24,936 nt of DNA from an uncultured Thermoleophilia bacterium (lineage in GTDB: Bacteria; Actinomycetota; Thermoleophilia; Gaiellales; F1-60-MAGs149), in contig CADCWC010000218.1 of assembly GCA_902806305.1 (NCBI GenBank), positions 1 to 24,936 of the forward strand, in the 5' to 3' direction. The stretch's first letter is position 1; each line of letters begins with the position of its first letter. The position numbers and the translations under genes are program-made. The notes below the pieces were generated by a model. That model saw only the letters and a list, made by a program, of their open reading frames with translations. It made no database searches and was not told the origin of the DNA. Positions 2-24,936 of the stretch are shown piece after piece.

Positions 2-448
2 CTCGGCGATCTGCGCCGCGCAGGCCGCCGCCGTGTCCGCCAGGGCGCCCGCCGTCTCGGCTTCGCCGGTCAGGCGCGGGTTGCAGCGCGCGGCGACCGC
101 GTCGGCCAGCGCGGCGAGCGCCAGGCCGCGCTCGGCGAGCGCGAGCGGGACGTGGGCCGCCGCGCGCCACGCCTCCGCCACGTCGCCGCCCGCCCGTCGC
201 GCCTCACCGACGGCCGCGAACGCGGTCTCGTCGGCGGCGATGAAGGCGAGGCTCTCCACGCGGTGCGTCGCCGCGGCCCTCGCCTCGGCGGCCAGCGATC
301 CGTCGTGCGTCAGCGCACAGGCCTTCTCGACCAGCGCCGCGGCCATCGCCGCGAGCACGCCGACGGCCGCGCCCGCCGCGTGGGACGGCTGCGGCGCGGC
401 CATGGCGTCCAGGAAGGCGCCGAGCGACTCGTCCGGATAGCCGCTCAG
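2..448 (-). CDS. Cyclodeaminase/cyclohydrolase family protein (FTCD C-terminal-like), 3' end runs off the window
   Basis: Not in the ORF track; translated by hand as (L)[45 protein letters not shown]...[10 protein letters not shown]...[16 protein letters not shown]. This matches the FTCD_C pattern (SL..FL..LA..P..G.A.A...AMAA.LV; VPL; N.....D/E...A..LA). The frame is open to the edge. The likely start is CTG at 448-446 overlapping the glgC TGA; the first ATG is at 403. Confidence 0.7.
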
Positions 449-1767: not shown

Positions 1768-1784
1768 GGCGTGGTCTCCCTCGG

Positions 1785-3230
1785 TCAGCCGACCGGCGCC
1801 AGGCGGCGTCGTTCGACCGTGTCGCGGTACAGATCGGCGTAGCGGGCCGCCGAGGCGGCCCAGGAGAGGTCTCGTCGCATGGCCCGACGCATCGCGGCCT
1901 CACGGCGTGGCACATCCTCCCACGCCGCCACGGCCCGCGCCAGCGCCTCGGCGGGCGCCCGGGCGGTGTACGGCTCGAAGCGCACGCCGACGCCGTCGGG
2001 GCCGTCGTCGAGGTCCGGGACCGTGTCGACGAGTCCGCCCGTGGCGCGGACCACGGGCAGCGTGCCGTAGCGCATGGCGATCATCTGCCCGAGCCCGCAC
2101 GGCTCGAACCGGGACGGCATCAGGAACAGGTCGGCGCCCGCGTAGAGCCGCTGCGCGAGCGCCGGGTCGAAGCGACGCCAGAGGCGGAACCCCTGCGGGA
2201 ACAGCTCCGCGAGCCCCTGCAGGCGCGTCTCGATGGCCGGGTCGCCGGTGCCGAGCACGACGACCTGGAGCGGCCGGCCGCCGAGCAGGGAGGGGAGCGC
2301 CTCGACGGTGATGTCCAGTCCCTTCTGCTCCACCAGTCGCGCGACGATGGCGACGACCGGCACGTCCGGAGCCACGGCGAGGCCCGCCTCGGCCTGCAGG
2401 GCCGCCTTGCAGCGGGCCTTGCCGGAGAGGTCGTCCGCGTCGTAGGGCGCCGCGATGTGCGGGTCGGTACGCGGGTCGAAGACGTCCGTGTCGAGGCCGT
2501 TCAGGATGCCGTGCACGTCGCTCGCACGACTGCGCAGGATCGGGTCGAGGCCGTGGCCGGGGCCGGGCGTGAGGATCTCCCGGGCGTACGTCGGGCTGAC
2601 GGTGGTGATCGCGTCGGCGGCGATGAGCCCCTCGGCCAGGAAGTTGACCAGGCCGTCGGGTGTCGACGGCAGCAGGCGGCCGCTGAAGCCGATGCTCCAC
2701 GCCGCGACGAGGCCCTGGTAGCCGAGGTTGTGGACCGTCATCACGGTCGGGAAGTCGAAGCCGGGGGCGCGCAGGGCCGCCAGCCAGCGCGGGAGCAGGC
2801 CGGTGTGCCAGTCGTGCACGTGCACGACGTCCGGCCGCCAGTCGAGGGCGTGCAGCGCGCCGAGCGTGAGCGCCTGGAAGACGACGAAGCGGTCGGCGTC
2901 GCCGACGAAGTCCGTGTAGACCGTGGGCCGCTCACCGAAGCTCGGGCCGTGCTCCGCGAACAGGATCGGCACGCCGTCGATCTCGCTCTCGAGCAGGCTG
3001 CCGAGCTGCGGCTCGCCGCCGAGCCCGACGGGGAACGGCCTGCCGAGCGGCCGCATGCGCCACGCCGCGCGGTCGAGGGCGCCGTAGGCCGGCAGGAGGA
3101 TCCGCACGTCGTGCCCGAGCGCGCGGAGCGCCTTCGGCAGGGCGCCGACGACGTCGGCGAGGCCCCCGACCTTGACGAGCGGCGTGGCCTCGGCGGCGAC
3201 GAACAGGATCTTCAGGGGCCGGTCGGGCAT
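1785..3230 (-). CDS. glgA: Glycogen synthase (ADP-glucose, GT5); start trimmed to MPDRPLKILFVAAE
   Basis: KILFVAAE.TPLVKVGGLADV, HVHDWHTG, TVHNLGYQG, TVSPTYA.EI, GILNGLD, RLVEQKG, PSRFEPCGLGQMIAMRYG, TGGLVDTV. ATG at 3230 gives 481 aa; the ORF-track 5' extension is not protein-like. Confidence 0.96.
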   Translation of the reverse strand: MPDRPLKILFVAAEATPLVKVGGLADVVGALPKALRALGHDVRILLPAYGALDRAAWRMRPLGRPFPVGLGGEPQLGSLLESEIDGVPILFAEHGPSFGERPTVYTDFVGDADRFVVFQALTLGALHALDWRPDVVHVHDWHTGLLPRWLAALRAPGFDFPTVMTVHNLGYQGLVAAWSIGFSGRLLPSTPDGLVNFLAEGLIAADAITTVSPTYAREILTPGPGHGLDPILRSRASDVHGILNGLDTDVFDPRTDPHIAAPYDADDLSGKARCKAALQAEAGLAVAPDVPVVAIVARLVEQKGLDITVEALPSLLGGRPLQVVVLGTGDPAIETRLQGLAELFPQGFRLWRRFDPALAQRLYAGADLFLMPSRFEPCGLGQMIAMRYGTLPVVRATGGLVDTVPDLDDGPDGVGVRFEPYTARAPAEALARAVAAWEDVPRREAAMRRAMRRDLSWAASAARYADLYRDTVERRRLAPVG

Positions 3231-3430
3231 GCGGCGGGCCTCGGCGGACGGGTCGGCACGGACGGGGCGCCAAGCGTAGTCGGGGGCGTCCCTCGGCGGA
3301 CGGGTCTCCGAGCGTTCCCGGTCGGCCGGCGCACGCGGTGGCGCCGAAGGGCACCCTGTCGGTGCTCGAGGGGCCGGAACGCGGCGACCTCGGTCCGCAG
3401 CGACGTCCGACGACGGAAGGACCAACGCGA

Positions 3431-4282
3431 ATGACGAGGATCGTCGTGACCGGCGGCAGCGGCCGGGCCGGGCGGCCTGTGATCCGGGAGCTCCTCGAGC
3501 ACGGCCACGAGGTCCTGAACGTCGACCTCGTGCCGTCGATCGACCCGGTCGCGCCGTACCTGCCCGCCGACCTGACCGACCTCGGGCAGACGATCGAGGC
3601 GCTGTCCGGCGCCGAGGCGCTCCCCGGCATCGAGGCCGTCGTCCACCTGGCCGCGCTGCCCGCGCCCGAGGTGGCGACGCCCGACGTCGTCTTCCGGACC
3701 AACATCACGAGCACGCACACCGTGTTCGCGGCCGCCGCGCGGCTCGGCCTGCGACGGGTGGTGTGGGCGTCGAGCGAGACGACCCTGGGGTTGCCGTTCG
3801 ACCAGCCGCCGGACTACGCGCCGGTCGACGAGGACCATCCGCTGCGGCCGGAGTCGAGCTACGCGCTCTCGAAGGTCCTCGGCGAGGAGACCGCGCGGCA
3901 GTTCAGCCGGTGGAGCGGCATCCCGATCGTCGGCCTGCGGTTCTCGAACATCATGCACCGCGTCGACTACGCGGAGTTCCCGTCGTACTGGGACGACCCG
4001 CAGCTGCGCCGGTGGAACCTCTGGGGGTACGTCGACGAGAGCCACGTGGCCGAGAGCTGCCGGCTCGGCCTCGAGGCCGACATCCGCGGCGCGGAGGCCT
4101 TCGTCATCGCCGCCGCCGACACGGTCATGCGGCGTCCGAGCCGGGAGCTGATGGCCGAGGTCTTCCCCGGCGTGCCGGTGCGGGACTCGGTCGCGGAGCA
4201 CGGCACGCTGCTCGCGATCGACAAGGCCCGGCGCCTGCTCGGCTACGACCCCCGGTTCTCCTGGCGGGAGCTCTACGACTAG
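3431..4282 (+). CDS. NAD-dependent epimerase/dehydratase (extended SDR)
   Basis: MTRIVVTGGSGRAG Rossmann motif, VVHLAA, WASSETT, YALSK (YxxxK); GGAAGG RBS upstream of ATG 3431; 283 aa. Confidence 0.9.
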   Translation: MTRIVVTGGSGRAGRPVIRELLEHGHEVLNVDLVPSIDPVAPYLPADLTDLGQTIEALSGAEALPGIEAVVHLAALPAPEVATPDVVFRTNITSTHTVFAAAARLGLRRVVWASSETTLGLPFDQPPDYAPVDEDHPLRPESSYALSKVLGEETARQFSRWSGIPIVGLRFSNIMHRVDYAEFPSYWDDPQLRRWNLWGYVDESHVAESCRLGLEADIRGAEAFVIAAADTVMRRPSRELMAEVFPGVPVRDSVAEHGTLLAIDKARRLLGYDPRFSWRELYD

Positions 4283-4302
4283 GGCCGACCGGCGGTCCAG
4301 CG

Positions 4303-5058
4303 CTACGCGAGCCGCCGGCGGATGTCCTCGGCGGCGCGCCCGAGGCGGTCGCCGAGCTCTCCGAAGCGCGTCGGCGGCAGCCGTCGGGCGGTGCCCCAGA
4401 GCGTGAGGTAGGCGATCGGTCGGTCGGCGCGGCCACGCACCGCGACCGCGATGCCGTTCAGGTCGTCCTCGAACTCGTCGACGATCGTGGCGAAGCCCCG
4501 CTCCTCGACGACGGCGATCTCGGCCTCGAGCACGGCGCGGTCGGTGATGGTCGACGTGGCGAGTCGCGGCAGCGTCTCCGGCAGCCGGTGCGCGCGCTCC
4601 TCGGCCGTCATGCCGGCCAGCGCGGCCTTGCCGCTCGGCGTGGCGTGGAGCGGCGCCACGATGCCGATCCAGTCCACGGCGAGCACCGTCGACGGGCTGA
4701 CCTGGTCGATCGAGACCACACCGCCCGCCCGCAGGACGTTCAGGTTGGCGGTGGTCCCGGTCGCGAGCACGAGCGCCTCGAGCGTCGGACGCGCGGCCCG
4801 GGCCAGCAGCGCGTCCGGGTCCGCCGCGGAGGCGAGCCGGACAACCTCGTGGCCGACGACGTAGCGCCGGGCCGCGTCGCGCTCCACGAGCCCGTGCCGC
4901 TCGAGCGCCTGGAGCAGGCGCCAGGCGGTGCTGCGCGTGAGGGAGCAGCGGTCGGCCAGCTCGAGGGCCGTGAGCGGCTCGGGCGCCTCGGCGGTGGCGC
5001 GGAGCAGCGCGACGGCGCGGTCCACGCTCTGCGTGGCGGCTGCAGCCGGTTGCACCAT
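4303..5058 (-). CDS. IclR-family transcriptional regulator
   Basis: QSVDRAVALL...LELADRCSLTRSTAWRLLQALERHGLV (HTH), PLHATPSGKA, IAVAV; 251 aa; divergent from the amidohydrolase-fold/Rieske genes. Confidence 0.93.
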   Translation of the reverse strand: MVQPAAAATQSVDRAVALLRATAEAPEPLTALELADRCSLTRSTAWRLLQALERHGLVERDAARRYVVGHEVVRLASAADPDALLARAARPTLEALVLATGTTANLNVLRAGGVVSIDQVSPSTVLAVDWIGIVAPLHATPSGKAALAGMTAEERAHRLPETLPRLATSTITDRAVLEAEIAVVEERGFATIVDEFEDDLNGIAVAVRGRADRPIAYLTLWGTARRLPPTRFGELGDRLGRAAEDIRRRLA

Positions 5059-5059
5059 A

Positions 5060-5078
5060 TGGGATTCGATCCTACATT
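5060..5078. promoter_or_regulatory. AT-enriched divergent promoter region with near-palindrome TGGGAT-TCG-ATCCTA (candidate IclR operator) and TANNNT -10 candidates on both strands
   Basis: Only 48 bp lie between the two start codons; GGAT-N3-ATCC at 5062-5072; TACATT (+, 5073-5078) and TAGGAT (-, 5074-5069). Confidence 0.4.
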
Positions 5079-5106
5079 ACGGGCGCCGACCACGAAGGAG
5101 CGCGCC

Positions 5107-6195
5107 GTGCTGATCGACTGCGACATCCACGTCGGGTACGAGAGCCTGCTGGACCTGGTCCCGTACCTCGACGGACCCACGCGGGAGCATGTGCTGCACG
5201 CCGGCTCGAACGGGCTCGCGATGCCGAGCTACCCGTGGTACCACCCGACGGGCTGGATCCGGAAGGACGCCTATGACGCCGCCGCGACCGCCTCCGGCCG
5301 GCAGATCCCGGGCCAGACCCTGCCGACCCTGCAGCGGCTTCTGCTCGACCCCTTCGATGTCACGTACGGGATCCTGACGCCCGACGAGGCCGCCGCCTTC
5401 TCGATCTACCCGAACGCCCAGCTGGCCGCGCGGCTCGCGACGGCCTACAACGACTGGCTCGCCGAGCGGTGGCTGCAGGAGGACGCCCGACTTCGGGGCC
5501 TCGTGGTCGTGGCGGCCCAGCATCCCGAGGCCGCAGCCGACGAGATCCGGCGGCGCGCGTCGGACGACCGCTTCGTGGGCGTGTTCCTGCCCGGCGGCGC
5601 CCGCGCGCCCTACGGCAACGTCATCTACGACCCGATCTGGCGCGCCGCGGCCGAGCACGGCCTGCCGGTGGTCGTGCACACGCACTTCGACGGCGTCGGG
5701 CTGAGCTCCCCCGTGACGGCCGCGGGGCATCCCGACACGTACGCCGAGTACCACGTGCTCTGCGGTTCGGGCATGTACGGCCACTTCGTGTCGACGGTCT
5801 ACTCCGGCGTGTTCGAGCGCTACCCCGACGCCCGCATGGTGATGAGCGAGGGCGGGGTGGTGCCGTTCCTCGGCTACCTGTGGCGGCTCGACACCGACTG
5901 GAAGGCCTGCCGGAGCGAGATCCCGCACTGCCGCCGCCTGCCGTCGGAGTACGTCTGGGATCACGTCCGCTTCACGACCCAGCCGCTCGAGACGCCCGAG
6001 GACCCGTCCGACCTGTGGCCGATCATCCGGCACCTGCGGCCGGAGCGGACGCTGCTCTTCGCGAGCGACTACCCGCACTGGGACTTCGACGAGCCGACGC
6101 ACACGCTGCGGCTCCTGCCGGCGGAGATCCGCGACGCCGTCGCCTACCGCAACGCGGGCGAGCTGTTCCGTCTCGGCGCGCCCGTGCCGCTGTGA
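5107..6195 (+). CDS. Amidohydrolase_2-fold protein, probable dinuclear (Fe/Mn) oxygenase of the AibH/PtmU3 type
   Basis: GTG start after GAAGGAG RBS; DCDIH, AYNDWL..W, VHTH, SEGG, FTTQPLE, FASDYPHWD motifs; 362 aa; GTGA overlap with a Rieske protein. Confidence 0.85.
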   Translation: MLIDCDIHVGYESLLDLVPYLDGPTREHVLHAGSNGLAMPSYPWYHPTGWIRKDAYDAAATASGRQIPGQTLPTLQRLLLDPFDVTYGILTPDEAAAFSIYPNAQLAARLATAYNDWLAERWLQEDARLRGLVVVAAQHPEAAADEIRRRASDDRFVGVFLPGGARAPYGNVIYDPIWRAAAEHGLPVVVHTHFDGVGLSSPVTAAGHPDTYAEYHVLCGSGMYGHFVSTVYSGVFERYPDARMVMSEGGVVPFLGYLWRLDTDWKACRSEIPHCRRLPSEYVWDHVRFTTQPLETPEDPSDLWPIIRHLRPERTLLFASDYPHWDFDEPTHTLRLLPAEIRDAVAYRNAGELFRLGAPVPL

Positions 6196-6584
6196 GCACG
6201 ATCGGCTCCGATCGCGAGCTGCGCCTCGCGGCCTCGGCGCTGCCCCCTGCGGGCGAGATCCGGATGGTCGAGCTCGGCCGGCACCGCATCGGGCTCTTCC
6301 GGGTGGGCGACGAGGTGCACGCGCTCGCCGACCGCTGCCCGCATCGCGGCGCGCCGCTCTGCTCGGCGGGCGACGTCGTGACCGGCATCGAGCGACGGCC
6401 CGACGGCCGCCTCGAGCTCGGCCCGGCGGGCGCGCTCGTGCGCTGCCCGTGGCACAAGTGGGACTTCGACATCGCGAGCGGCGAGTGCGTCGTCGAGCCG
6501 CGCCTGCGTGTCCGCCGCTACCCCGTGCGCCACGACGGCGACGACGTGGTCGTGAGCCTCGACGGCGGGCTCGACCGGCCGTAG
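6192..6584 (+). CDS. Rieske [2Fe-2S] ferredoxin
   Basis: CPHRGAPL ... RCPWHKWDFD (CxH...CxxH); GTG start overlaps the upstream TGA (GTGA); 130 aa. Confidence 0.93.
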   Translation: MSTIGSDRELRLAASALPPAGEIRMVELGRHRIGLFRVGDEVHALADRCPHRGAPLCSAGDVVTGIERRPDGRLELGPAGALVRCPWHKWDFDIASGECVVEPRLRVRRYPVRHDGDDVVVSLDGGLDRP

Positions 6585-6596
6585 CGAGGGCCACGG

Positions 6597-7019
6597 GTGC
6601 TCGTCGGGGAACGGGCCGAGGAGGTCCGGGTGCTCCTGGAGCGCCTGGCGGCGTGGGCCGGCCGGCGTCCGGACGTCTGCGCGTTGGCGCTCGTCGGGTC
6701 GTGGGCGCGCGGCGCGGCGGGACCGACGTCCGACGTGGACGTCGTGCTGCTGACGACCGAGCCGTGGCGGTACGTCGACCACGTCGACTGGCTCGACGAC
6801 GTCGGCGCCGTCCACCTCCTGCAGACGCGGTCGTGGGGCGCCGTCACGGAGCGCCGCGTCGCCCTCCCGAGCGGCCTCGAGGTCGAGTTCGGGATCGGCT
6901 CGCCCTCGTGGGCCTCGACCGACCCGGTCGACCCCGGCACCCGCCGGGTCGTGACGGACGGCCTGGGCGTGCTTCACGACCCCGACGGGGCGCTCGCCCG
7001 GCTCGTCGCAGCGTGCTGA
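6597..7019 (+). CDS. Minimal nucleotidyltransferase-domain protein (pol-beta superfamily)
   Basis: LVGSWARG....SDVDVVLL (GS-DxD motif) plus a third acidic residue in LEVEFG; 140 aa. Confidence 0.8.
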   Translation: MLVGERAEEVRVLLERLAAWAGRRPDVCALALVGSWARGAAGPTSDVDVVLLTTEPWRYVDHVDWLDDVGAVHLLQTRSWGAVTERRVALPSGLEVEFGIGSPSWASTDPVDPGTRRVVTDGLGVLHDPDGALARLVAAC

Positions 7020-9215: not shown

Positions 9216-9263
9216 CCGCGTCCTGGCGCCCCTCCGGTTCAGCCGAGCGGCGCCAGGACGCGG
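9216..9263. terminator. 15-bp perfect inverted repeat between convergent genes (likely bidirectional terminator)
   Basis: CCGCGTCCTGGCGCC (9216-9230) / GGCGCCAGGACGCGG (9249-9263), 18-nt loop containing the flavin reductase stop codon. Confidence 0.55.
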
Positions 9264-9841
9264 ACGAGCGGGTCGTTCAGGTCCTCGTCGTCCTCGAGCG
9301 AGAGCGGCCCGCCCTTGACGGCCAGGGCAGGCAGGCGCGGCAGCATCCGCAGCGCGCTCTCGTGGAACAGCAGCGGGGTCTCGTCGGCGCGGCCGCAGCG
9401 CTCGACGAGGCCGAACATCACGTCGTGGTCACCGACCCGGACCACCTCGTGGAGCTTGCAGACGAGGAGGGCGAGCCAGTGGTCGAGGATCGGCACGCCC
9501 TCCTCGTCGAGGTGATGGGAGACCGCGTCGAAGCGAGGCGCGTGGAAGCCGACGAACGCGCGCGCCGAGGAGATCTGGTCGTGAGCCAGCACGTGGATGG
9601 CGAACCGGCCCGAGGTCTTCGCCGCCTCGCAGGTGCGCGCGCCGATCTGCGAGCAGACGAGCACGATCGGCGGGTCGAGCGACACGCTGGTGAACGAGTT
9701 GGCCGTCATACCGCAGAGGGTGCCGTCCTCGGCCGCGGCCGAGACGATCGTCACCCCCGTCGGGTACGAGCTCATCACGGAGCGGAACGTGGCCGGGTCG
9801 AAGGCGTCGCCCAGCGAGGAGAGGTCGGACATGGACGTCAT
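9239..9841 (-). CDS. Flavin reductase family protein (HpaC/DszD-like)
   Basis: FR.VMS.YPTGVTIVS, GMTANSFTSVSLDPP.VLVC, GDHDV.FG.V, PLLF; the start may be at 9832 instead. Confidence 0.92.
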   Translation of the reverse strand: MTSMSDLSSLGDAFDPATFRSVMSSYPTGVTIVSAAAEDGTLCGMTANSFTSVSLDPPIVLVCSQIGARTCEAAKTSGRFAIHVLAHDQISSARAFVGFHAPRFDAVSHHLDEEGVPILDHWLALLVCKLHEVVRVGDHDVMFGLVERCGRADETPLLFHESALRMLPRLPALAVKGGPLSLEDDEDLNDPLVRVLAPLG

Positions 9842-13325: not shown

Positions 13326-14723
13326 TCAGGCGGGCGAGCCGCCGTTCGATGAGCCGTCGGCCTCGCCGAGCAGGCGCTCGGCCAGCTTGCGCTTCTCCTC
13401 GGGACCGAGCTTCTTGATCTCGTTCTCCATCGCGCGCGTGTTGACGACCTGGTTCCAGTAGTCGAGCGAGTCGTAGCCGAGCAGCGCCGTCTTGCCCACG
13501 AACTGGCGCAGCACCTCGTTCGTCGGGCCCATGACCCAGCCCGCCTTGCCGTCGCGCAGGTAGCGCTCGATGTCGAGCGGCTTCTTCTTGTAGCCCGTGC
13601 CGCCCGTGCAGTGCAGCATCTTGTCGACGACCCGGGCGACGTTCTTCGCGGCCCGGAACTTGATCTGCCACAGGAACGGCAGGTAGTCCGCGCGGGCGAG
13701 CTCGCCGACCGGCGGATTGCGTCGCGCGTCGTCCGTGACCTTGTCGAGCGCCTGGGCGACCGAGAACGTGAACGCACGGGCCGAGTTCGTCTCGATGATC
13801 GCCTCGCCGACGGCGTCCTGGATCGTCGGGTAGTCGCAGACCCGCAGGCCGACGTCCTTGTGCGTCTTGCGGGTCGTGTGGGAGATCGCGATGTCGATCG
13901 CGCCGAGCGCGATGCCGCTCCAGACGCCGGAGGACCCGATCAGGAAGTTCGGATCGACGGACTCGTCGTTCGAGGCGGCGCCGTCACCGATCGGACCGAC
14001 GAGCTGCTGCTCGGGCACGAAGCCCCAGTCGACGAGCAGGGAGCCGGACTGGTTGCCCCGCAGGCCGAGGGCGTCCCACTCCTGCGGCTCGGCCTGGATC
14101 TGCGAGGCGTCGATCAGGAAGACGGACAGGTTCGAGTAGTCGCCGCCGTAGTCGGGCGACGTCGTCTGGCAGACGTAGAAGTCGGCGAAGCCGCCCGAGG
14201 TCGTCCACGACGCCTTCTTCAGCACCTCGAAGCCGCCCTCGACCCTACGGGCGCCCGACGCCATCGGGTACCAGAAGTGGGAGCCGGTCTCGGGGTCCGA
14301 GTAGGAGAGCGTGCCGATCAGCCCGTCCTTGACCTTCTTCAGGTAGTTCTCGACGAAGTAGTCCGTCTGGCGCAGGCGGAGCGTCTCGACGGCGCCCGTG
14401 TGCATCACGTAGCACATGGCACAGGAGGCGTCGCCGTAGCGCGCGATCGTCTCCGTGACCCACGCGTAGAAGACGTGGTTCTGGCCCAGCCCGCCCCACT
14501 CCTTGGGCAGCATGACGCCGAGGAAGCCGTCCGGCCCGAGCGCCTCGAGGCTCTCGCGCGGGAACGTCAGCGTGGCGTCGTTGTGACGCGCCCGCGGCCG
14601 GATCTCCGTCTCGCAGATCTCCCGAAGGCGCGCCAGGAGTCCGATCTGCTCCTCGTTCAGGAACCAGACCGGGTCGAACATCGGGTCGAGTCCGTTCTTG
14701 GTCTCCTCGGCCACCGCGGCCAT
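13326..14723 (-). CDS. Acyl-CoA dehydrogenase-fold flavoprotein (possibly a flavin-dependent monooxygenase)
   Basis: D....FP.E.L..LG..G.LG..LP.EWGGLG, SDPETGSH, K.SW.TSGG.AD, W..LGLRG..SG, GGTGY....IERYLRD; GAAGGAGG RBS; 465 aa. Confidence 0.88.
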   Translation of the reverse strand: MAAVAEETKNGLDPMFDPVWFLNEEQIGLLARLREICETEIRPRARHNDATLTFPRESLEALGPDGFLGVMLPKEWGGLGQNHVFYAWVTETIARYGDASCAMCYVMHTGAVETLRLRQTDYFVENYLKKVKDGLIGTLSYSDPETGSHFWYPMASGARRVEGGFEVLKKASWTTSGGFADFYVCQTTSPDYGGDYSNLSVFLIDASQIQAEPQEWDALGLRGNQSGSLLVDWGFVPEQQLVGPIGDGAASNDESVDPNFLIGSSGVWSGIALGAIDIAISHTTRKTHKDVGLRVCDYPTIQDAVGEAIIETNSARAFTFSVAQALDKVTDDARRNPPVGELARADYLPFLWQIKFRAAKNVARVVDKMLHCTGGTGYKKKPLDIERYLRDGKAGWVMGPTNEVLRQFVGKTALLGYDSLDYWNQVVNTRAMENEIKKLGPEEKRKLAERLLGEADGSSNGGSPA

Positions 14724-14943: not shown

Positions 14944-16419
14944 ATGGGAGCGATCGAGAGCGGGCTCCAGCTCGAGAACCTGGTGTCGACCGTGCTCGCG
15001 TCGCCGAGGGTGGCCCCGCCGCCCGCGACGCTCGGCGAGGCCCGGAACGCGCCGGGGCGTGACGCGCAGATCGCCGACATCCAGGCCCGGATCGAGCGCG
15101 AGGGGATCCAGTACGTCTTCTTCCAGCAGGTGTCGGTGTCCGGGCACGTCAACGGCAAGGGCGTCGTCTCGGACTTCTTCGCCCAGGTGGCGAAGAACGG
15201 CTACCAGCTCGTCTACGGCGCCACGGCCGACCTGTTCCTCGACCGGCACGAGAACTACATCGGGTTCGGCCCGCACACCTCCGAGCTCGCGGCGATCGCC
15301 GACCTCGACACGTTCAGCGTGCTCCCGTGGGACCCGCGCGTGGCCCGCGTGTTCTGCGACTGCTACGACACGGAGACGGGCGGGCTGCTCGAGTCGGACC
15401 CCCGGCAGAACCTGAAGGTGGTGGCCGACGAGGTCGAGGCCGAGCTGTCGGAGCTGCTCGGCACGCAGGTCAGCTTCCTGTGCGGGATCGAGCCGGAGAT
15501 GATGTGGTTCGGGCAGAAGCCGTCGGGCGGCCAGGAGCCGATCGGGCTGACCAAGCCCTGGTGCTACCACATCAACCAGTTCGAGCAGCTGCGCGAGGTG
15601 ATCCTCGACGTCGTGGCCTACGGCAAGGCGCTCGGGCTGCGGATGAGCTACGGCGACCACGAGGACTCGCCGGGCCAGCTCGAGCTGAACTTCGCGTTCG
15701 ACCGCGCCTCGCGGACGGCCGACAACCTGACCACGTACCGCCAGATCTGCGCGGCGGTCGGCCGGAAGCACGGCCTGTTCCCGTCGTTCATGCCGAAGCC
15801 GTTCACGGGCGTGTCGGCGAACGGGGCGCACCACCACTTCACGCTCGTCGACGAGTCGGGTCGGAACGTCTTCTACGACCCGAACGGCCCGGCCACGCTC
15901 TCGGACGCGGGGCGGAGCTTCCTCGGCGGCATCCTCAAGCACTACCGCGCGCTGACCTGCGTCTCGGCGCCGACGGTCAACTCGTACAAGCGCTTCTTCG
16001 ACGAGGGCTTCTGGGCCCCGATCCACGCCGACTACGGCTGGCAGAACCGGACCTGCGCCGTGCGGGTGGCCGGCTCGGGGCGCTTCGAGTACCGCTCGGT
16101 CGACTCGGCCTGCAACCCGTACCTGACGCAGGCCGCGCTGCTGACCTGCGGGCTCGAGGGCATCCGCGACAAGATCGACCCCGGTCCGCCGCAGTCCGAG
16201 AACGTCTACGAGGTGCTCGACCGGGGCACCACGATCGGCCGCGTGCCGAACACGCTCGGCGAGGCCCTGGACGCGCTGCACGAGGACGAGACGGTCAGGG
16301 GGGCGCTCCGCGGGCACCTCTACGAGGTCTTCCGGCACTACAAGCGCGACGAGTGGGAGCGCTTCTGCTCGGCCGTCACCGACTGGGAGCGCGACCAGTA
16401 CTTCGACGTCCTGCCGTGA
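14944..16419 (+). CDS. gmaS: Gamma-glutamylmethylamide synthetase-like glutamine synthetase-family protein (GlnT/GmaS)
   Basis: GIEPE, DHEDSPGQLELNF, FMPKPF.G.SANGAHHH, YKR....WAP....YG..NRT..VR, RFEYRS.D..CNPYL. The DHED motif and adjacency to glxBCD/mgsABC favour GmaS over GlnA. GGAGG RBS; 491 aa. Confidence 0.8.
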   Translation: MGAIESGLQLENLVSTVLASPRVAPPPATLGEARNAPGRDAQIADIQARIEREGIQYVFFQQVSVSGHVNGKGVVSDFFAQVAKNGYQLVYGATADLFLDRHENYIGFGPHTSELAAIADLDTFSVLPWDPRVARVFCDCYDTETGGLLESDPRQNLKVVADEVEAELSELLGTQVSFLCGIEPEMMWFGQKPSGGQEPIGLTKPWCYHINQFEQLREVILDVVAYGKALGLRMSYGDHEDSPGQLELNFAFDRASRTADNLTTYRQICAAVGRKHGLFPSFMPKPFTGVSANGAHHHFTLVDESGRNVFYDPNGPATLSDAGRSFLGGILKHYRALTCVSAPTVNSYKRFFDEGFWAPIHADYGWQNRTCAVRVAGSGRFEYRSVDSACNPYLTQAALLTCGLEGIRDKIDPGPPQSENVYEVLDRGTTIGRVPNTLGEALDALHEDETVRGALRGHLYEVFRHYKRDEWERFCSAVTDWERDQYFDVLP

Positions 16420-16425
16420 TCGGCG

Positions 16426-16486
16426 GCCGGTGCGAGGGACGCACGCGTCCCGAGGGCCGTATGTGCATTTCGTCCCTCGCACCGGC
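16426..16486. repeat. 61-bp palindromic element, 16-bp perfect arms
   Basis: GCCGGTGCGAGGGACG (16426-16441) / CGTCCCTCGCACCGGC (16471-16486), starting 6 nt after the gmaS stop. Confidence 0.8.
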
Positions 16487-16617
16487 GGCCGGATGTGGCC
16501 GAATCGCTCCTAGACGGGGCCTCTAGGCCTCGATACGCTCCAGCGCCACGGGCCGGTATGGAGCTTCCCTCCACCGTGCGCCCGTCGGCCGTCACTCCGA
16601 AGCGAGGCAGACCAGAG

Positions 16618-17541
16618 ATGTGCGGGATCGCCGGGATCATCTACCGCGACGGGGAGCACGACGTGGGGCGCGACCTCACGCGCATGCTCCAGTCGATGAA
16701 GCACCGCGGGCCGGACTCCACCGGCTTCGCGCTCTACGGGCCGGTCGGTCCGCAGATCGTCGTGCGCTACACGCTCGCCGACGCGAACGACCCGCGCGGC
16801 ATGCACTTCGACGAGCGCATGGTCGGCAACCGACGTGAGGTCTCCTCGCGCCTGCGCAGCGCGGGCGCCGTCATCGAGGAGCTCGAGCAGGAGACGGCCT
16901 ACGCCGACCGCGCGGTGCTGACCTACGACGGCGACCTGAAGACGCTCACCGACCTGCTCGAGGACATCCAGGGCTGCGAGGTCCTGTCGCTCGGCCACTC
17001 GCTCGAGATCGTCAAGGACCTCGGCGACGCCGAGGCCGTCTGCTCGCAGTACGGCCTGGAGACGTTCCGCGGCACGCACGCCATCGGCCACGCGCGGATG
17101 GCCACCGAGTCCGAGGTCGACATCTCGGGCGCCCACCCGTACTGGGCCTACCCGTTCCCGGACGTGGCCGTGGTCCACAACGGCCAGCTGACGAACTACT
17201 TCCAGTGGCGCCGCCGCCTGGAGCGGAGCGGCCACCGGTTCCAGTCCGAGTGCGACTCGGAGATCATCGCCGTCTACGTGGCCGAGCGGATGACGGAGGG
17301 CTACACCCTCGAGGAGGCCATGCGGCAGAGCCTCGAGGAGCTCGACGGCGTCTTCACCTACATGTGCGTGACCGCGGACGCCCTCGGCGTGGCGAAGGAC
17401 GAGATGGCCGCCAAGCCGCTCGTGCTCTACGAATCGGACCAGCTCGTGGCCGTGGCCTCCGAGGGCACGGCGATCGAGACGCTGACCGACGGCGACACGT
17501 ACGACCCCTACGAGGGCGAGGTGATGGTATGGCAGCGGTAG
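16618..17541 (+). CDS. mgsA: Class II glutamine amidotransferase-like subunit (N-methylglutamate synthase subunit A, GlxB)
   Basis: N-terminal MCGIAG (Ntn Cys), HRGPDSTG, HAIGHARMATES, HP, VHNGQLTNY, SECDSE, LDG.FT; 307 aa. Confidence 0.85.
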   Translation: MCGIAGIIYRDGEHDVGRDLTRMLQSMKHRGPDSTGFALYGPVGPQIVVRYTLADANDPRGMHFDERMVGNRREVSSRLRSAGAVIEELEQETAYADRAVLTYDGDLKTLTDLLEDIQGCEVLSLGHSLEIVKDLGDAEAVCSQYGLETFRGTHAIGHARMATESEVDISGAHPYWAYPFPDVAVVHNGQLTNYFQWRRRLERSGHRFQSECDSEIIAVYVAERMTEGYTLEEAMRQSLEELDGVFTYMCVTADALGVAKDEMAAKPLVLYESDQLVAVASEGTAIETLTDGDTYDPYEGEVMVWQR

Positions 17542-18317
17542 GCGAGCGCGCGGTCAGCTACGACGCACGCGGCCTGGCGGAGCCGAACGCGGTCGCGCCC
17601 GAGACGGCGGTCGTCGACGGCCAGACGGCCGAGCTCGACGCGGCCGACCTCTCGATCCGACAGATCAACCTGGAGCTCCGGCGCCTCGTCTACGGGCTCG
17701 GCGTGACCGACGTCGTGGTCCGCAACCCCGGCTCGAAGCACTCGCTCGGCGTGGGCATCCTGACGCGCTGCCGGATCCGCTTCGAGGGCAGCCTCGGCTA
17801 CTTCGCCTGCGGGCTGCTCGACGGGCCCGAGGTGCACATCACGGGGCGCGTGGGCTGGGCGGCGTGCGAGAACATGATGTCCGGCGTCGTGGTCATCGAG
17901 GGGAACGCCGGCTCCCAGACGGGGGCGGCGCTGCGCGGCGGCGACCTCGTGGTCAAGGGCCGCGCCGGCGCGCGCTCGGGCATCGACCAGAAGGGCGGCA
18001 CCATCATCACGATGGGCAGCGTCGGGGCGATGACGGGCTTCATGATGCAGCGCGGCCGCCAGGTCATCTGCGGCGACGCGGGCCCGGGGCTCGGCGACTC
18101 GATGTACGACGGGACGATCTACGTGGCCGGCAAGGTCAAGGCCCTCGGGATCGACTGCGTGCCCGGTGAGTGGACGGACGCCGACACCGAGTTCATCGAG
18201 CGCAAGTTCCGCATCTACGACCTCGGCTCGCCGCCGTCGTTCGACAAGTTCGTCTGCGGCAAGAAGCTCTACAACTACGACAGCCTCGAGCCGGCCGAGC
18301 GCAAGCTCGTCCTCTAG
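17529..18317 (+). CDS. mgsB: GXGXG/FmdC-like subunit (N-methylglutamate synthase subunit B, GlxC)
   Basis: GSLGYFACG, G.VGW...ENMMSG, GNAGSQTGA.LRGG, G.R.GI..KGG, MTGFMMQRG, GDSMYDG.IYV; overlaps the mgsA end by 13 nt; 262 aa. Confidence 0.87.
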   Translation: MAAVGERAVSYDARGLAEPNAVAPETAVVDGQTAELDAADLSIRQINLELRRLVYGLGVTDVVVRNPGSKHSLGVGILTRCRIRFEGSLGYFACGLLDGPEVHITGRVGWAACENMMSGVVVIEGNAGSQTGAALRGGDLVVKGRAGARSGIDQKGGTIITMGSVGAMTGFMMQRGRQVICGDAGPGLGDSMYDGTIYVAGKVKALGIDCVPGEWTDADTEFIERKFRIYDLGSPPSFDKFVCGKKLYNYDSLEPAERKLVL

Positions 18318-18331
18318 GACCGGGAGACCAC

Positions 18332-19798
18332 ATGGCGGCCACCGACGACATCCGGCAGCACCCGGACCGGGCCAACATCGACCAGCAGCGCAGCGTGCTC
18401 GGGCACTCGCAGATCTTCACGCCGGAGGTCATCGACGACATCCACGTGAAGTCGGAGCTCGGCCGCTACCGGATGCGCGGCTTCTCGATGTTCAAGAAGA
18501 TCCCGCACTGGGACGAGCTGATGTTCATGCCCGGCACGCTCACGCGCTTCGTGATCGAGGGCTACCGCGAGAAGTGCGAGACGAAGACCGTGCTCGGCGC
18601 GCGCTTCGCGAAGAACCCGCTGACGCTCGACATCCCGATCTACATCACGGGCATGAGCTTCGGCGCGCTCTCGATCGAGGCGAAGATGGCGCTCGCCAAG
18701 GGCGCCTCGATGGCCGGGACGGCGACCTGCTCGGGCGAGGGCGGCATGATCCCGCCCGAGCGCGAGCTCTCGACCAAGTGGTACTACCAGGTCATCCAGA
18801 GCCGGTACGGGTTCAACCCGCACCACCTGATGCTGGCCGACGCGGCCGAGTTCTTCATCGGCCAGGGCTGCAAGGTCGGGCTCGGCGGGCACCTGATGGG
18901 CCAGAAGGTCACGGAGCAGGTGGCCGAGATGCGCTCGCTGCCCGTCGGCATCGACCAGCGCTCGCCCGCCCGGCACCCGGACTGGCTCGGCCCGGACGAC
19001 CTGTCGCTGAAGATCCAGGAGATCCGCGAGGCGACCGACTACCGGATCCCGATCCAGCTGAAGCTCGGCGCCGCGCGCGTCTACGACGACGTGCGGATGG
19101 CGGCCAAGTGCGGCCCCGACATCATCTACCTGGACGGCGCCGAGGGCTCGACGGGCGCCGGGCCGCACACGGCGACCGAGGAGACCGGCATCCCGCTGAT
19201 GGCGGCCATCCCCGAGGCGCGGCGCGCCCTCGAGGACGTCGGCCTGGCCGACGAGATCGACCTCGTGGTGGCGGGAGGCATCCGGAACGGCGGCGACATC
19301 GCCAAGTGCATCGCGCTCGGGGCCAAGGCCGTGGCCATCGGCCACTCGGCGCTGATCGCGCTGAACTGCAACAAGGAGATCCCGGGCGTCACCGACTACG
19401 AGGGGACGATCGGGGTCAAGGCCGGGCGCTGCTACCACTGCCACACGGGCCGCTGCCCGGTCGGCGTGACGACGCAGGATCCGGAGCTGCGGGCCCGCCT
19501 GGAGGTCGACGCCGCCGCCGAGCGGGTCTACAACTTCCTGCACGCGATGACGCTCGAGCTCCAGATGCTGGCCCGGGCCTGCGGCAAGACGGACGTGCAC
19601 AGCCTCGAGCCCGAGGACCTCTGCGCACTGACCGTCGAGGCCTCGGCGATGGCCAAGGTGCCGCTCGCGGGCACGACCTACATCCCGGGCGTGACCGAGC
19701 AGCGCACGCTCGACGAGATCAAGGGCCTCGTGCAGGGCCTCGTGCCCCAGCCGCACGGCGAGTCCGACCGCGAGTTCGTGCGACCGGCGGCCGACTGA
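18332..19798 (+). CDS. mgsC: FMN-binding glutamate synthase family subunit (N-methylglutamate synthase subunit C, GlxD)
   Basis: ITGMSFGALS, SGEGGM, SRYGF, IGQGCKVGLGGHL.G.KV, SPARHPD, DG.EG.TGA, GGIRNG.D.AK..ALGA, CYHCHTGRCP.G..TQD ([3Fe-4S] motif); 488 aa. Confidence 0.9.
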   Translation: MAATDDIRQHPDRANIDQQRSVLGHSQIFTPEVIDDIHVKSELGRYRMRGFSMFKKIPHWDELMFMPGTLTRFVIEGYREKCETKTVLGARFAKNPLTLDIPIYITGMSFGALSIEAKMALAKGASMAGTATCSGEGGMIPPERELSTKWYYQVIQSRYGFNPHHLMLADAAEFFIGQGCKVGLGGHLMGQKVTEQVAEMRSLPVGIDQRSPARHPDWLGPDDLSLKIQEIREATDYRIPIQLKLGAARVYDDVRMAAKCGPDIIYLDGAEGSTGAGPHTATEETGIPLMAAIPEARRALEDVGLADEIDLVVAGGIRNGGDIAKCIALGAKAVAIGHSALIALNCNKEIPGVTDYEGTIGVKAGRCYHCHTGRCPVGVTTQDPELRARLEVDAAAERVYNFLHAMTLELQMLARACGKTDVHSLEPEDLCALTVEASAMAKVPLAGTTYIPGVTEQRTLDEIKGLVQGLVPQPHGESDREFVRPAAD

Positions 19799-20361
19799 TG
19801 GCCCCCGACGAGCACATCCTGAACGACCCGGACCAGATGCACCACGACCCGCACGCGGGCGGTCACGCCACGGCCGAGGGCGGCCCGGGCGGCGACGAGC
19901 AGCACGCGCAGAGCGTGACGGGGCACCACCCCGAGCGCGCGCAGTGGACGATGGGCACCTCGATCGACTCGGAGGCGCTCTGGGGCCGACGGTTCCCGTA
20001 CCAGGAGGACCTGTCCCTGGTCGAGGACGTCGACCTGGTGGCGGCGACGCCCGGGGCCGACATCAACTGGCTCGAGGACGTCGACCTCCTCCAGGAGGAG
20101 GGCATCCCGGCCGTCTTCGACCGCTACTCCAACTGCTTCCTCAAGATCCACTTCCCGATCCCGGCGGGGCGCGAGAACGAGATCGCCCGCAAGGTCCTGA
20201 TCAAGCACCTGCAGTCGGGCAACTCCTACGGGATCCGGATGAAGGAGAAGCACGCCAAGTTCGCGCAGCCGGAGCTCGGGCCGTGGGTGGCGAACTCGCG
20301 GACGGTGGGGGAGAACTACACCCCGCCGGTGCTCGAGGGCTGGGAGCCGCCCGTCCACTGA
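19798..20361 (+). CDS. Hypothetical protein with His-rich N-terminus, translationally coupled to mgsC
   Basis: TGATG overlap at 19796-19800; GC3-rich codons; followed by a terminator hairpin; 187 aa; no family recognised. Confidence 0.8.
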   Translation: MAPDEHILNDPDQMHHDPHAGGHATAEGGPGGDEQHAQSVTGHHPERAQWTMGTSIDSEALWGRRFPYQEDLSLVEDVDLVAATPGADINWLEDVDLLQEEGIPAVFDRYSNCFLKIHFPIPAGRENEIARKVLIKHLQSGNSYGIRMKEKHAKFAQPELGPWVANSRTVGENYTPPVLEGWEPPVH

Positions 20362-20370
20362 CCGCCGTGT

Positions 20371-20399
20371 GACCGGCGCCCGTGGGGCGGGCGCCGGTC
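20371..20399 (+). terminator. Terminator hairpin ending the mgsABC-orf187 unit
   Basis: GACCGGCGCCCG / CGGGCGCCGGTC 12-bp stem, 5-nt loop, 9 nt after the stop. Confidence 0.7.
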
Positions 20400-20637: not shown

Positions 20638-21414
20638 TCAGGCCCCGAGCGCCCGCGAGACCTCGCGGCCGGCCTGGACCAGCGCGGGCCGGGCGACGTC
20701 CATCGCGTCCGGCGTGAAGCGGGCGGCGGGCCCCTGCAGCCCGAGGACGGCCGCCAGGTCGCCGCGCGCGTCGAGGACGGGGACGGCCACCGCGTTGAGG
20801 TCCGGCTCGCGCTCGCCGACGGCGCGGGCCACGCCCTCGAGCCGGATCCGTTCGACCTCCCGCCGCAGCGCCGCCGGGTCGGTGATCGTCCGGGACGTGT
20901 AGCCCGTCAACGGGCCGTCCGGGTCCGCCACGACCCCGTCACGACCGAACGCGAGCATGACCTTGCCGACGGCCGTGGCGTGCGCCACGCTCGGTCGGCC
21001 GACGCGGGCCACGGAGATCACCGTCCCGGCCCGGCCGGGCACGAAGTCGGCGGTCACGGCCTCGTCGCCCGCGGGCAGGGACAGCGTGGCCGTCTCGCCG
21101 TGGCGGTCGACGAGGTCCTCGAGGAACGGCCGCGCCAGCGCGCGGACGTCCAGACGGGCCAGGACGGCGTTCGCGAGCTGCAGCACGCGCGCGCCGAGAC
21201 GGTAGCGGCCGCTGTCCGGCAGGTGCTCCACGTAGCCCGCCGCGGTCAGCGTGGCCAGGACGCGCGACACGGTGGCGGCGTTGATCGCGGTGCGGCGGCT
21301 GATCTCCGAGGTGCCGAGCTCCCCGCCGGGAGCGGCGCCGAGGGTGTCCAGGACCTGCGTCGCCCGTGCGACCGCCGCCAGTGTCCGAACGGCCGGGACT
21401 CCCGTCCGGCCCAC
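20638..21414 (-). CDS. IclR-family transcriptional regulator
   Basis: LAAVARATQVLD.L...G.SEISRRT.IN.ATVSRVL.TL...GYV, AHATAVGKVMLA, AVAVPV; 258 aa. Confidence 0.93.
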   Translation of the reverse strand: MGRTGVPAVRTLAAVARATQVLDTLGAAPGGELGTSEISRRTAINAATVSRVLATLTAAGYVEHLPDSGRYRLGARVLQLANAVLARLDVRALARPFLEDLVDRHGETATLSLPAGDEAVTADFVPGRAGTVISVARVGRPSVAHATAVGKVMLAFGRDGVVADPDGPLTGYTSRTITDPAALRREVERIRLEGVARAVGEREPDLNAVAVPVLDARGDLAAVLGLQGPAARFTPDAMDVARPALVQAGREVSRALGA

Positions 21415-23337: not shown

Positions 23338-24648
23338 TCAGCTCCAGGGGTAGGGGCTGTGCGAGACCGGGTGCAGGTCGCCGGTCGCGAAGCGCTCGTA
23401 GCGGAACGGGTAGAGCAGCGACGAGTGCTCGCCGAGCAGCACGCGGGCGACCTCCCGTCCGACGCCGATCATCTTGTAGCCGTGGTTCGAGTCGGCGATC
23501 ACGTAGACGTTCGGGCGCATCTCGTCGAAGACCGGGAAGTTGTCGACCGTGAACGCCCCGACACCGCCCGACCGGACGGTCTTGTAGGCCGAGCGCATCC
23601 CCGAGAAGCGCTCCATGCAGTGCGAGAGCGCCGCGACCCACATGTCGGCGAAGCCCGGCTCCACGGAGGAGCTCGGGTACGGGTCGACCTGGAAGTCGTG
23701 TCCCTTCGGGAGCGGTGACGCGCCGCCCTGCACGCCGTGGCGGTCCCGCTTGAAGTAGATGCCCCACAGCTCGTCCGTGATCAGCCGGCCGTCGTCGTCG
23801 TGGAGCGGCGCATCGGAGTCGACGTGGATCACCGGCGGGATCCCGCCCTCGGCGGTGGCGAACAGCGACGGGTCCATCGTGATCTCGCCCTCCTGGAGGT
23901 ACCAGAAGGTCCACATCTCGCGGTCGCGGTGCACCTCGCCCTCGGGTGTGCGCACGTCGAGGCGCTGCGGCAGCCCGAGCATCCCCCAGATCTCCTTGAC
24001 CCACGGTCCGGCGCCCACGACCACCTGCTCGACCTGGATCGAGCCGCCGTCGGTCTCGACCGTCGTGACGGCACCGGAGTTGTCGAGCTCGAACCCGGTC
24101 ACCCGGACGCCCTCGAGGATCTGGACGCCCTCGCCGCGGGCCTTCCCGGCCAGCCCCTGGATGGCGTCGACGTTGTAGGCGAACCCGCCCTTGTGCTCGT
24201 GCAGGCAGACCGTCACGCCGCGGCCGCGCCAGTCCGGGTAGAGGCCCCGCATGTAGTCGCGGACCTCGCGCTCGCCCACGATCAGGTCCGAGGGGTAGCC
24301 GATGCGCTGCTGCCGCTCGTGCACCTCGATCAGGTCCTGCTCCTGGACCTGCGGGCCGAGCGCCATGTAGCCCACGCTGTTGTAGGCGTACGCCGCCGGG
24401 TCCTCCTCCCAGACCTCGACGTTGGCGGCCATCAGCTCGGCCATCGCGGGCTGGTAGTAGTTGTTGCGGACGACGCCGCACGCGATCCCCGAGGCCCCCG
24501 CGGCCACGCCGGTCTTGTCCACGACCAGGATGTCCTCGCCGCCGCCCTGGCCGCGGGCCTTCAGCTCCTTGGCCAGGTGGTAGGCCGTGGAGAGGCCGTG
24601 GACGCCCGCGCCGATGACGAGGTAGCGCGTGGACTTGGGGACCTGCAT
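23338..24648 (-). CDS. FAD-dependent oxidoreductase, DAO/sarcosine oxidase beta (SoxB/MgdA)-like
   Basis: YLVIGAGVHGLSTAYHLA, VVDK....GASG.ACGVVR.NY, VTG, VVVGAGPW, T.DNFPVFD, GYK...VG; GGAGG RBS 8 nt before ATG 24648; 436 aa. Confidence 0.88.
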   Translation of the reverse strand: MQVPKSTRYLVIGAGVHGLSTAYHLAKELKARGQGGGEDILVVDKTGVAAGASGIACGVVRNNYYQPAMAELMAANVEVWEEDPAAYAYNSVGYMALGPQVQEQDLIEVHERQQRIGYPSDLIVGEREVRDYMRGLYPDWRGRGVTVCLHEHKGGFAYNVDAIQGLAGKARGEGVQILEGVRVTGFELDNSGAVTTVETDGGSIQVEQVVVGAGPWVKEIWGMLGLPQRLDVRTPEGEVHRDREMWTFWYLQEGEITMDPSLFATAEGGIPPVIHVDSDAPLHDDDGRLITDELWGIYFKRDRHGVQGGASPLPKGHDFQVDPYPSSSVEPGFADMWVAALSHCMERFSGMRSAYKTVRSGGVGAFTVDNFPVFDEMRPNVYVIADSNHGYKMIGVGREVARVLLGEHSSLLYPFRYERFATGDLHPVSHSPYPWS

Positions 24649-24667
24649 GGTGTCGACCTCCGGCCGT

Positions 24668-24695
24668 ATTGCCATGACGGCAATCGTGTTGCCAT
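24668..24695. promoter_or_regulatory. Candidate operator: ATTGCC-N5-GGCAAT inverted repeat plus second TTGCCAT half-site
   Basis: Perfect inverted repeat at 24668-24684; TTGCCAT direct repeat at 24669 and 24689 (20-bp period); AT-enriched, just upstream of the oxidoreductase RBS. Confidence 0.55.
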
Positions 24696-24711
24696 ACGTT
24701 GTAGGTGGAGA

Positions 24712-24936
24712 CTAGACGGCGGGCGGGTCCGACGCAAGCGCCGGGCTCCGAGGCGAACGCCGGCCCACACCGCCCGGCCGCGGCCAGGCGGCGCTCGCCG
24801 TCGGGCGCGAGCTGACGAGCCGGAACCAGCCGGTGCGTCGGCGTCGGGCCGACAGGTCATGCTCGCGCAGGACGCCACGGAGACGGGCCACCGTCAGGAC
24901 GACCGGGTCGACGAGCTCGAGCCGTCCGCCGGCCGC
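24712..24936 (-). CDS. Possible C-terminal fragment of a hypothetical protein entering from the right edge
   Basis: Open frame AAGGRLELVDPVVLTVARLRGVLREHDLSARRRRTGWFRLV...* ending at TAG 24714-24712; GC3-rich in its first half. Confidence 0.3.
   Translation of the reverse strand, partial: AAGGRLELVDPVVLTVARLRGVLREHDLSARRRRTGWFRLVSSRPTASAAWPRPGGVGRRSPRSPALASDPPAV

Follow-up and report, generated by a model that had tools for sequence, protein, structure and literature searches.

A lone DAO-fold flavoprotein of Thermoleophilia and its association with a second type of N-methylglutamate gene module

Methylated amines rank among the major sources of C1 units and nitrogen in soils and in the sea, and the textbook N-methylglutamate route comprises eight genes. 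In Proteobacteria, these form the series gmaS-mgsABC-mgdABCD, as on a plasmid of Paracoccus alcaliphilus, where the cluster extends into folD-purU (L111). As the MgdA reference in our analysis, we used the beta-family member that occupies the mgdA position in this cluster; the locus on a Methylobacterium plasmid lacks the mgd genes and was unsuitable for this purpose. Here, we describe the gene P0002, located near one end of a 24,936-nucleotide stretch from an uncultured Thermoleophilia bacterium (assembly GCA_902806305.1, contig CADCWC010000218.1). This stretch, hereafter the window, is the entire contig C218 of a 516-contig metagenome-assembled genome (MAG) that is 70% complete, and its nearest relatives are Gaiellales/Thermoleophilia MAGs. 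The window contains a ligase gene and three synthase genes in the same order as the Paracoccus cluster, followed by a gene for an additional small protein, X (together the type I module, Table 1). The MgsC proteins of the two systems are 54% identical, whereas the window ligase is a divergent protein sharing 33% identity with Paracoccus GmaS, protein X has no counterpart in the Paracoccus cluster, and a lone DAO gene, P0002, stands in place of mgdABCD. Within the SoxB/MSOX/DMGO superfamily, P0002 and its relatives form a compact clade that is new. With the balance somewhat in favor of this reading, we propose that P0002 is a stand-alone N-demethylating oxidoreductase that uses flavin adenine dinucleotide (FAD) and acts on an N-methylated glutamate made by the type I module.

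The P0002 gene is real, as indicated by its abundant orthologs (63–80% identity) and by a confident AlphaFold model, which was computed from a 125-sequence alignment and has a mean pLDDT of 93.7 and a pTM of 0.92. The protein comprises a single DAO domain (PF01266) spanning residues 9–402, which scores 117.5 bits against a gathering threshold of 27.9. The best structural matches are the SoxB beta chains (2GAG_B and 3ADA_B; TM 0.73–0.81, 20% identity), followed by the proline dehydrogenase beta subunit of Pyrococcus horikoshii, and then by MSOX, DMGO/DMGDH, and MTOX. P0002 shares with SoxB/MgdA (2GAG_B, 1VRQ_B) the two-domain DAO/FAD fold, the GxGxxG motif, and two residues that are nearly invariant in its family: Arg61, which aligns with the Arg of the SoxB IIR-SNY motif, and Lys392, which aligns with the Lys of the GFK motif. 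In MSOX and TSOX, an Arg/Lys pair binds the substrate carboxylate. Similar to MSOX and MTOX (1EL5, 2UZZ), P0002 is a single-subunit protein that combines this pair with the same fold (TM about 0.7–0.8), but it shares 18–20% identity with them and is longer by approximately 45–65 residues.

The first-pass annotation of this DNA had described P0002 as SoxB/MgdA-like. This description holds at the level of the superfamily and fails at the level of orthology. The top-scoring NCBIfam model, soxB (TIGR01373), gives 72.4 bits against a cut-off of 529.45 and covers residues 9–215 only, and the MSOX/MTOX models TIGR01377 and NF008425 give 55.5 and 55.8 bits against cut-offs of 479.65 and 257, respectively. 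A profile-profile comparison relates P0002 to SoxB/MgdA with 99.8% probability at 24% identity and shows the substrate domain of P0002 to be longer by about 35 residues. Identity to the MgdA reference is 25% over 220 residues, confined to the N-terminal half. In the phylogenetic tree, which the annotation had called for, a long, fully supported branch separates P0002 and its relatives from the SoxB/MgdA group. The sequence, residue, and tree tests therefore place P0002 within the amine-oxidizing DAO superfamily and outside the SoxB/MgdA family.

The residues involved in covalent flavin attachment in the related enzymes are replaced. In SoxB, a flavin mononucleotide (FMN) is covalently linked to His173 of the beta subunit (literature numbering) at the alpha/beta interface. 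Tyr158-Asn159-Val160 of P0002 aligns with the corresponding RHD motif of the SoxB type (KHDH in Corynebacterium), so that this His corresponds to Asn159, which is nearly invariant in the P0002 family. The His that is flavinylated within the G-S-x-x-H-A-x-G motif of DMGDH and DMGO (1PJ5, 4PAB) is likewise absent, as the annotation had noted: residues 51–58 of P0002 read GASGIACG, with Ile55 at the position of the His in the SSFHAPG segment of a DMGDH-like protein encoded on contig C241 of the same genome. In MSOX/MTOX, a Cys carries covalent 8-alpha-S-cysteinyl FAD; by eye, P0002 has no Cys about 30–35 residues before Lys392, a segment that was read without a reliable residue-level alignment. 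P0002 resembles DMGO/DMGDH in the fold of the flavin domain and, as proposed here, in N-demethylation chemistry. Unlike DMGO, DMGDH, and SarDH, it lacks a fused C-terminal GCV_T domain and consists of a DAO domain only, so that a folate-dependent partner would have to act in trans.

The clade is compact. Only 258 of 1.84 billion cluster representatives match P0002 at an E-value of 1e-30 or better; among the 150 matches listed, most are fragments, and the full-length clusters at 50% identity amount to a handful. Its members have 420–454 residues, are similar over their full length (33–80% identity), and share synteny with the type I module. For P0002, a protein atlas returned generic DAO clusters only, a plasmid collection yielded no close relative (all matches at 26% identity or less), and neither Swiss-Prot nor the PDB contains one. 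The literature searched includes no paper on the clade or on the type I module. One source labels some family members as methylglutamate dehydrogenase subunit A, which our sequence tests do not support.

The genomic context of the family was analyzed at 43 orthologous loci flanked on each side by 8 kb of sequence or more, termed well-flanked. MgsC1, the MgsC-like protein of the window type, is encoded within 10 kb of the P0002 ortholog at 34 of these loci, and a canonical SoxB-like gene lies within 10 kb at 15. The clade extends from soil Thermoleophilia to cultured Alphaproteobacteria, with a member in Pikeienuella piscinae (53% identity over the full length) and others in Nitratireductor sp. 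XY-223 and Hoeflea sp. TYP-13. Where examined in Alphaproteobacteria and for a 33%-identical member, the DAO gene opens a GntR-controlled operon and is followed by the genes for the GS-like ligase, MgsA, MgsB, MgsC, X (137 residues), and a CN-hydrolase. In Solirubrobacterales, the order on one strand is gmaS1-mgsA1B1C1-X-DAO, with the stop codon of X overlapping the DAO start (TGATG). Every type 1 mgsC, also in Alphaproteobacteria, is followed by a conserved gene for protein X. The linkage of P0002 homologs to mgs and gmaS genes, on which the annotation had staked its proposal, is thus observed both as proximity and as shared operons, and such linkage is a feature that the family has in common with SoxB/MgdA.

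A survey of 251 genomes of the class, which are related to one another so that the counts are not independent, revealed the P0002 family in 31 of the 32 genomes with MgsC1 other than the window's own. The relatives carry two MgsC paralogs, of which type 1 is 86–90% and type 2 is 50–58% identical to the window protein, and the type 2 gene usually directly adjoins soxD. The complete genome G155 illustrates the arrangement. The type II genes of G155 form one operon, PucR-gmaS2-mgsA2B2C2-soxD-A-G-B, whose ligase is 43–45% identical to Paracoccus GmaS; its type I set lies 20 kb away with the P0002 ortholog, an IclR gene, X, and a ligase that is 31% identical to Paracoccus GmaS. Unlike Paracoccus, the relatives thus have the canonical set in addition, in an operon of its own that is fused to soxDAGB. 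The genome of the window, in its assembled 70%, shows the type I set only.

The annotation had further pictured P0002 as a lone subunit that closes the N-methylglutamate cycle with no co-transcribed delta, alpha, or gamma subunit. P0002 is indeed encoded alone, and family scans found no SoxD, SoxA, or SoxG gene in the window. The same genome, however, carries soxD followed by soxA on contig C222 (L018; positions 2–1775, minus strand), where soxA runs off the contig start. Contig C51 (L028; 202–2963, minus strand) carries a beta gene truncated at the contig end, with another GAF-PucR gene behind it. The C51 beta protein is a canonical SoxB: even with its N-terminus cut off, it reaches 369.5 bits with the soxB model, retains the His of the RHD motif, and shares 41% identity with the Paracoccus MgdA-position protein over the full length and 61% with the beta proteins of relatives. 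In relatives, the sox gene order is soxD-A-G-B, with a beta gene of its own that is distinct from P0002. No beta gene is present on C222 upstream of soxD-soxA; the gene diverging from soxD there encodes a methyltransferase. The two contigs, C222 and C51, probably adjoin and form one sox operon of the order D-A-G-B. In the class survey, the P0002 family was found in 35 and SoxD in 41 genomes, and all 35 carriers of the P0002 family also have SoxD, often 5–20 kb away. These observations indicate that P0002 does not replace an absent four-subunit enzyme. On C222, soxA is split over two frames near 114–313, reflecting a frameshift or an assembly error, and a GCV_T gene followed by another DAO-like gene occupies 3433–6642 on the plus strand.

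We suggest the following mechanism. The GS-like ligase, the MgsA1B1C1-like synthase, and X of the type I module would build an N-methylated L-glutamate, for which N-methylglutamate is the default candidate and N,N-dimethylglutamate the alternative. Arg61 and Lys392 of P0002 may hold the alpha-carboxylate of this substrate, while its N-CH3 bond would be oxidized on a non-covalently bound FAD. The resulting iminium product would hydrolyze to demethylated glutamate and a C1 unit, and the electrons would pass to O2 or another acceptor. P0002 would operate without delta, alpha, and gamma subunits. The C1 unit may leave as free formaldehyde, or a separate GCV_T protein may transfer it to tetrahydrofolate. 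The latter option agrees with the annotation's suggestion of a different partner: a free GCV_T gene lies within 2 kb of the P0002 ortholog at 10 of the 43 well-flanked loci, and the window's genome encodes an ortholog of it (59% identity) at the edge of contig C432. The neighboring GCV_T proteins score highest against the C-terminal domain of Tdm, the trimethylamine N-oxide (TMAO) demethylase. A possible identification with DmmD was examined, but identity to Paracoccus DmmD is only 27%, and no orthology is claimed.

Several points weigh against this proposal. The clade is known from sequences and a predicted model, and the residue mapping depends on alignments at 20–24% identity. MgsC1 is missing within 10 kb at nine of the 43 well-flanked loci. 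Adjacency is not fixed either, as the P0002 ortholog of genome G003 lies 3.5 kb from type II mgs genes, and the operator of P0002 is not shared with the gmaS-like operon of the window. Moreover, since SoxD occurs in all carriers and a canonical beta is present where examined, the four-subunit enzyme could oxidize the product of the module, leaving another task to P0002.

An unlikely though serious alternative is that P0002 acts on a substrate unrelated to N-alkylglutamates, such as sarcosine, a proline-type imino acid, glycine, a D-amino acid, or another small amine or amino acid from the catabolism of methylated amines or osmolytes, and is merely co-located with the module in a shuffled methylated-amine island. 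Such islands also carry Tdm, ACAD-like, flavin-reductase, and permease genes as well as other GCV_T and DAO genes, the adjacency of P0002 to the module differs by lineage, with some loci lacking mgs genes within 10 kb, and the P0002 gene has its own operator and regulator. Against this, the operon shared with GS-like and mgs-like genes persists across two phyla and down to 33% identity, the DAO start and X stop overlap in Solirubrobacterales, and the presence of the P0002 family closely follows that of MgsC1 in the class sample.

We consider it very improbable that P0002 instead serves the type I synthase as a GltD-like redox partner, carrying electrons to or from the Fe-S/FMN center of MgsC1 with no dealkylation. 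This idea draws on two observations: where glutamate synthase has its 3Fe-4S site, MgsC1 retains a C-x2-C-x4-C-P-V-G motif preceded by a further Cys, and the DAO gene is included within the operon in several lineages. It is weakened by the actinobacterial type II MgsC2, encoded in operons fused to soxDAGB that contain no such DAO, which keeps the same Cys motif. P0002 also lacks an Fe-S or NAD(P)H-binding module, the DAO domain being its only Pfam match, and it keeps the Arg/Lys carboxylate pair typical of amino-acid-oxidizing members. Similarly improbable is that P0002 docks as an alternative beta subunit on the delta, alpha, and gamma subunits of C222, exchanging with the C51 beta to alter substrate specificity: the SoxB beta chains as top structural match, the occurrence of SoxD in every surveyed carrier, and the lack of a beta gene upstream of soxD-soxA on C222 would suit it, but Asn159 replaces the FMN-linking interface His, the substrate domain is extended and overall identity is only 20–25%, the soxD-A-G-B operon of relatives has its own beta, the truncation of the C51 beta by the contig end fits a C222–C51 join, and the DAO operon of Pikeienuella lies more than 1 Mb from either chromosomal soxD copy while soxD of Nitratireductor is on other contigs.

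The features of the window are listed in Table 1. The start codon of P0002 is supported by the family N-terminus MxLPxS..YLVIGAG, which aligns at the same Met, and AGGAG-type ribosome-binding sites occur at the same position at orthologous loci. An alternative ATG at 24675 was rejected because it falls within the operator palindrome. Only 288 bp separate the start from the contig end, and the description of the gene as monocistronic therefore rests on the conserved promoter and operator. A 74-codon open frame at the contig end (24715–24936, minus strand) was compared with the kinase found upstream in the nearest relative and with other sequences, and none of them matched. Contig C432 was considered as a continuation of the window and ruled out, as its orientation and end sequence do not fit.

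Table 1. Positions of P0002, its upstream signals, the neighboring regulators, and the type I module in the window
Feature	Position	Strand	Basis
Coding sequence of P0002, 436-residue DAO-fold flavoprotein	23341–24648	minus	Stop codon 23338–23340; translation
Ribosome-binding site GGAGGT	24656–24661	minus	7 nt before ATG at 24648; read from sequence
Operator-like element GGCAA-N5-TTGCC-N5-GGCAA, three half-sites, 10-bp spacing	24669–24693	minus	Sense-strand read
Candidate -10 box TAGTCT	24709–24714	minus	Inferred; aligns with TACACT/TACAAT/TACGAT boxes of relatives just upstream of the operator
IclR-family regulator	20638–21414	minus	Pfam
Convergent regulator: two GAF domains, GGDEF-like domain, PucR helix-turn-helix	21251–23308	plus	Pfam; listed open reading frame is the longest possible
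Type I module: ligase, MgsA-, MgsB-, and MgsC-like proteins, protein X	14944–20361	plus	Pfam, NCBIfam
GS-like ligase, 491 residues	14944–16419	plus	TIGR03105, 333 bits against a cut-off of 470
MgsA-like protein	within open reading frame 16495–17541	plus	Pfam/NCBIfam
MgsB-like protein	ends 18317	plus	Pfam/NCBIfam
MgsC-like protein	about 18350–19798	plus	Pfam/NCBIfam
Protein X, 187 residues	19798–20361	plus	ATG overlaps mgsC stop; frame set by alignment with L006 and L007

The annotation had credited P0002 with a ribosome-binding site and an operator of its own, and conservation confirms both. Of 77 orthologous loci whose upstream regions were extracted, 50 have the TTGCC-N5-GGCAA core between a -10-like box and the ribosome-binding site, and many others have near-matches. 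The P0002 operator region includes a perfect palindrome at 24668–24684, and its TTGCC-N5-GGCAA site is the sole such site in the intergenic regions of the window. A genome-wide scan for further copies gave noise and one perfect site, C21:550–564; this is the only other perfect palindrome of the assembly and may be a second site of the same regulator. A scan with the sigma-70 consensus found no match. An IclR gene is located within 400 bp of the DAO gene at 30 of the 43 well-flanked loci, and the IclR protein of the window is probably the binder of the operator, being the likeliest candidate. In the proposed scheme, P0002 would be transcribed from its own promoter, gated by the three-half-site operator with IclR as the probable binding protein. 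The convergence of P0002 on a PucR gene is also as annotated: the two stop codons face each other across a 29-bp gap. The true start of the GAF-PucR frame probably lies after the IclR start, near 21.45–21.55 kb. The closest relatives (L030, L031, and L064) share the order DAO → PucR ← IclR.

Protein X has no match in Pfam, NCBIfam, or the protein atlas, and it is absent from type II sets as well as from the Paracoccus cluster examined. Its His-rich N-terminal tail is specific to the genome of the window. A small gene initially placed at 19944–20372 after mgsC was discarded, as the alignment with L006 and L007 shows its frame to be wrong. In the MgsC-like protein of the window, the upstream Cys of the putative 3Fe-4S site belongs to an LNCN motif; the Cys motif is lost in MgsC of Paracoccus and Methylobacterium. 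An ACAD-fold protein (13326–14723, minus strand) and a flavin reductase (9239–9841, minus strand) are conserved neighbors of the type I module and possibly constitute a two-component monooxygenase. In Pikeienuella piscinae, the operon (L117, 8418–21344) is flanked by genes for a class-I glutamine amidotransferase, a CN-hydrolase whose best match is deaminated-glutathione amidase, an amino-acid permease, an FMO-like protein of the Tmm type, and an OpuAC binding protein.

Some relatives possess a paralog, DAO-2, that is 39–45% identical to P0002. In genome G041, DAO-1 and DAO-2 follow X in tandem. In G003, the type I operon lies next to soxDA, and its last genes encode DAO-2 (39% identical), an ACAD-like protein, and TMAO demethylase; the ACAD-like gene is located between DAO-2 and the demethylase in G015 as well. 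The type II MgsA, MgsB, and MgsC of G003 (L120, G003:C1:502001–518000, positions 2232–6608) are 53%, 61%, and 78% identical to those of Paracoccus, far closer than other Thermoleophilia type II sets, which suggests recent horizontal transfer.

The distribution of these genes raises a further, rather doubtful possibility, namely that the type I module, P0002, and DAO-2 constitute an undescribed glutamate-mediated route for dimethylamine that fills the dimethylamine monooxygenase step. In such a route, dimethylamine would first be attached to glutamate by the GS-like ligase together with the Mgs1/X synthase. One methyl group would then be removed by the lone flavoprotein(s) and reach tetrahydrofolate via a free GCV_T protein, leaving N-methylglutamate for the four-subunit enzyme to finish. 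Tdm is encoded in 21 genomes of the class survey; the P0002 family is found in 19 of them, as a rule within the same island. A DmmC-type gene (PF11927) occurs in five genomes, none of which has P0002, and none of the 35 P0002 carriers has DmmC; the sole Tdm-positive genome with DmmC lacks both P0002 and MgsC1. This distribution fits a gap in the pathway, which could be closed by the type I module together with the flavoprotein(s). Against the dimethylamine route, no Tdm was found in the assembled 70% of the window's own genome, and the Tdm and DmmC counts, gene distributions on which the suggestion is founded, come from related, non-independent genomes.

Taken together, P0002 extends a known superfamily and a known type of pathway, and it appears to mark a second version of the N-methylglutamate route, characterized by a divergent ligase, a split synthase with an accompanying small protein, and a lone flavoprotein. 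This type I version is common in soil Thermoleophilia and is also found in cultured marine Alphaproteobacteria, which makes it directly testable. The database label of methylglutamate dehydrogenase subunit A on part of the P0002 family would need correcting. Identifying the P0002 substrate would show whether bacteria can process dimethylamine through glutamate or can close the N-methylglutamate cycle with a single subunit.

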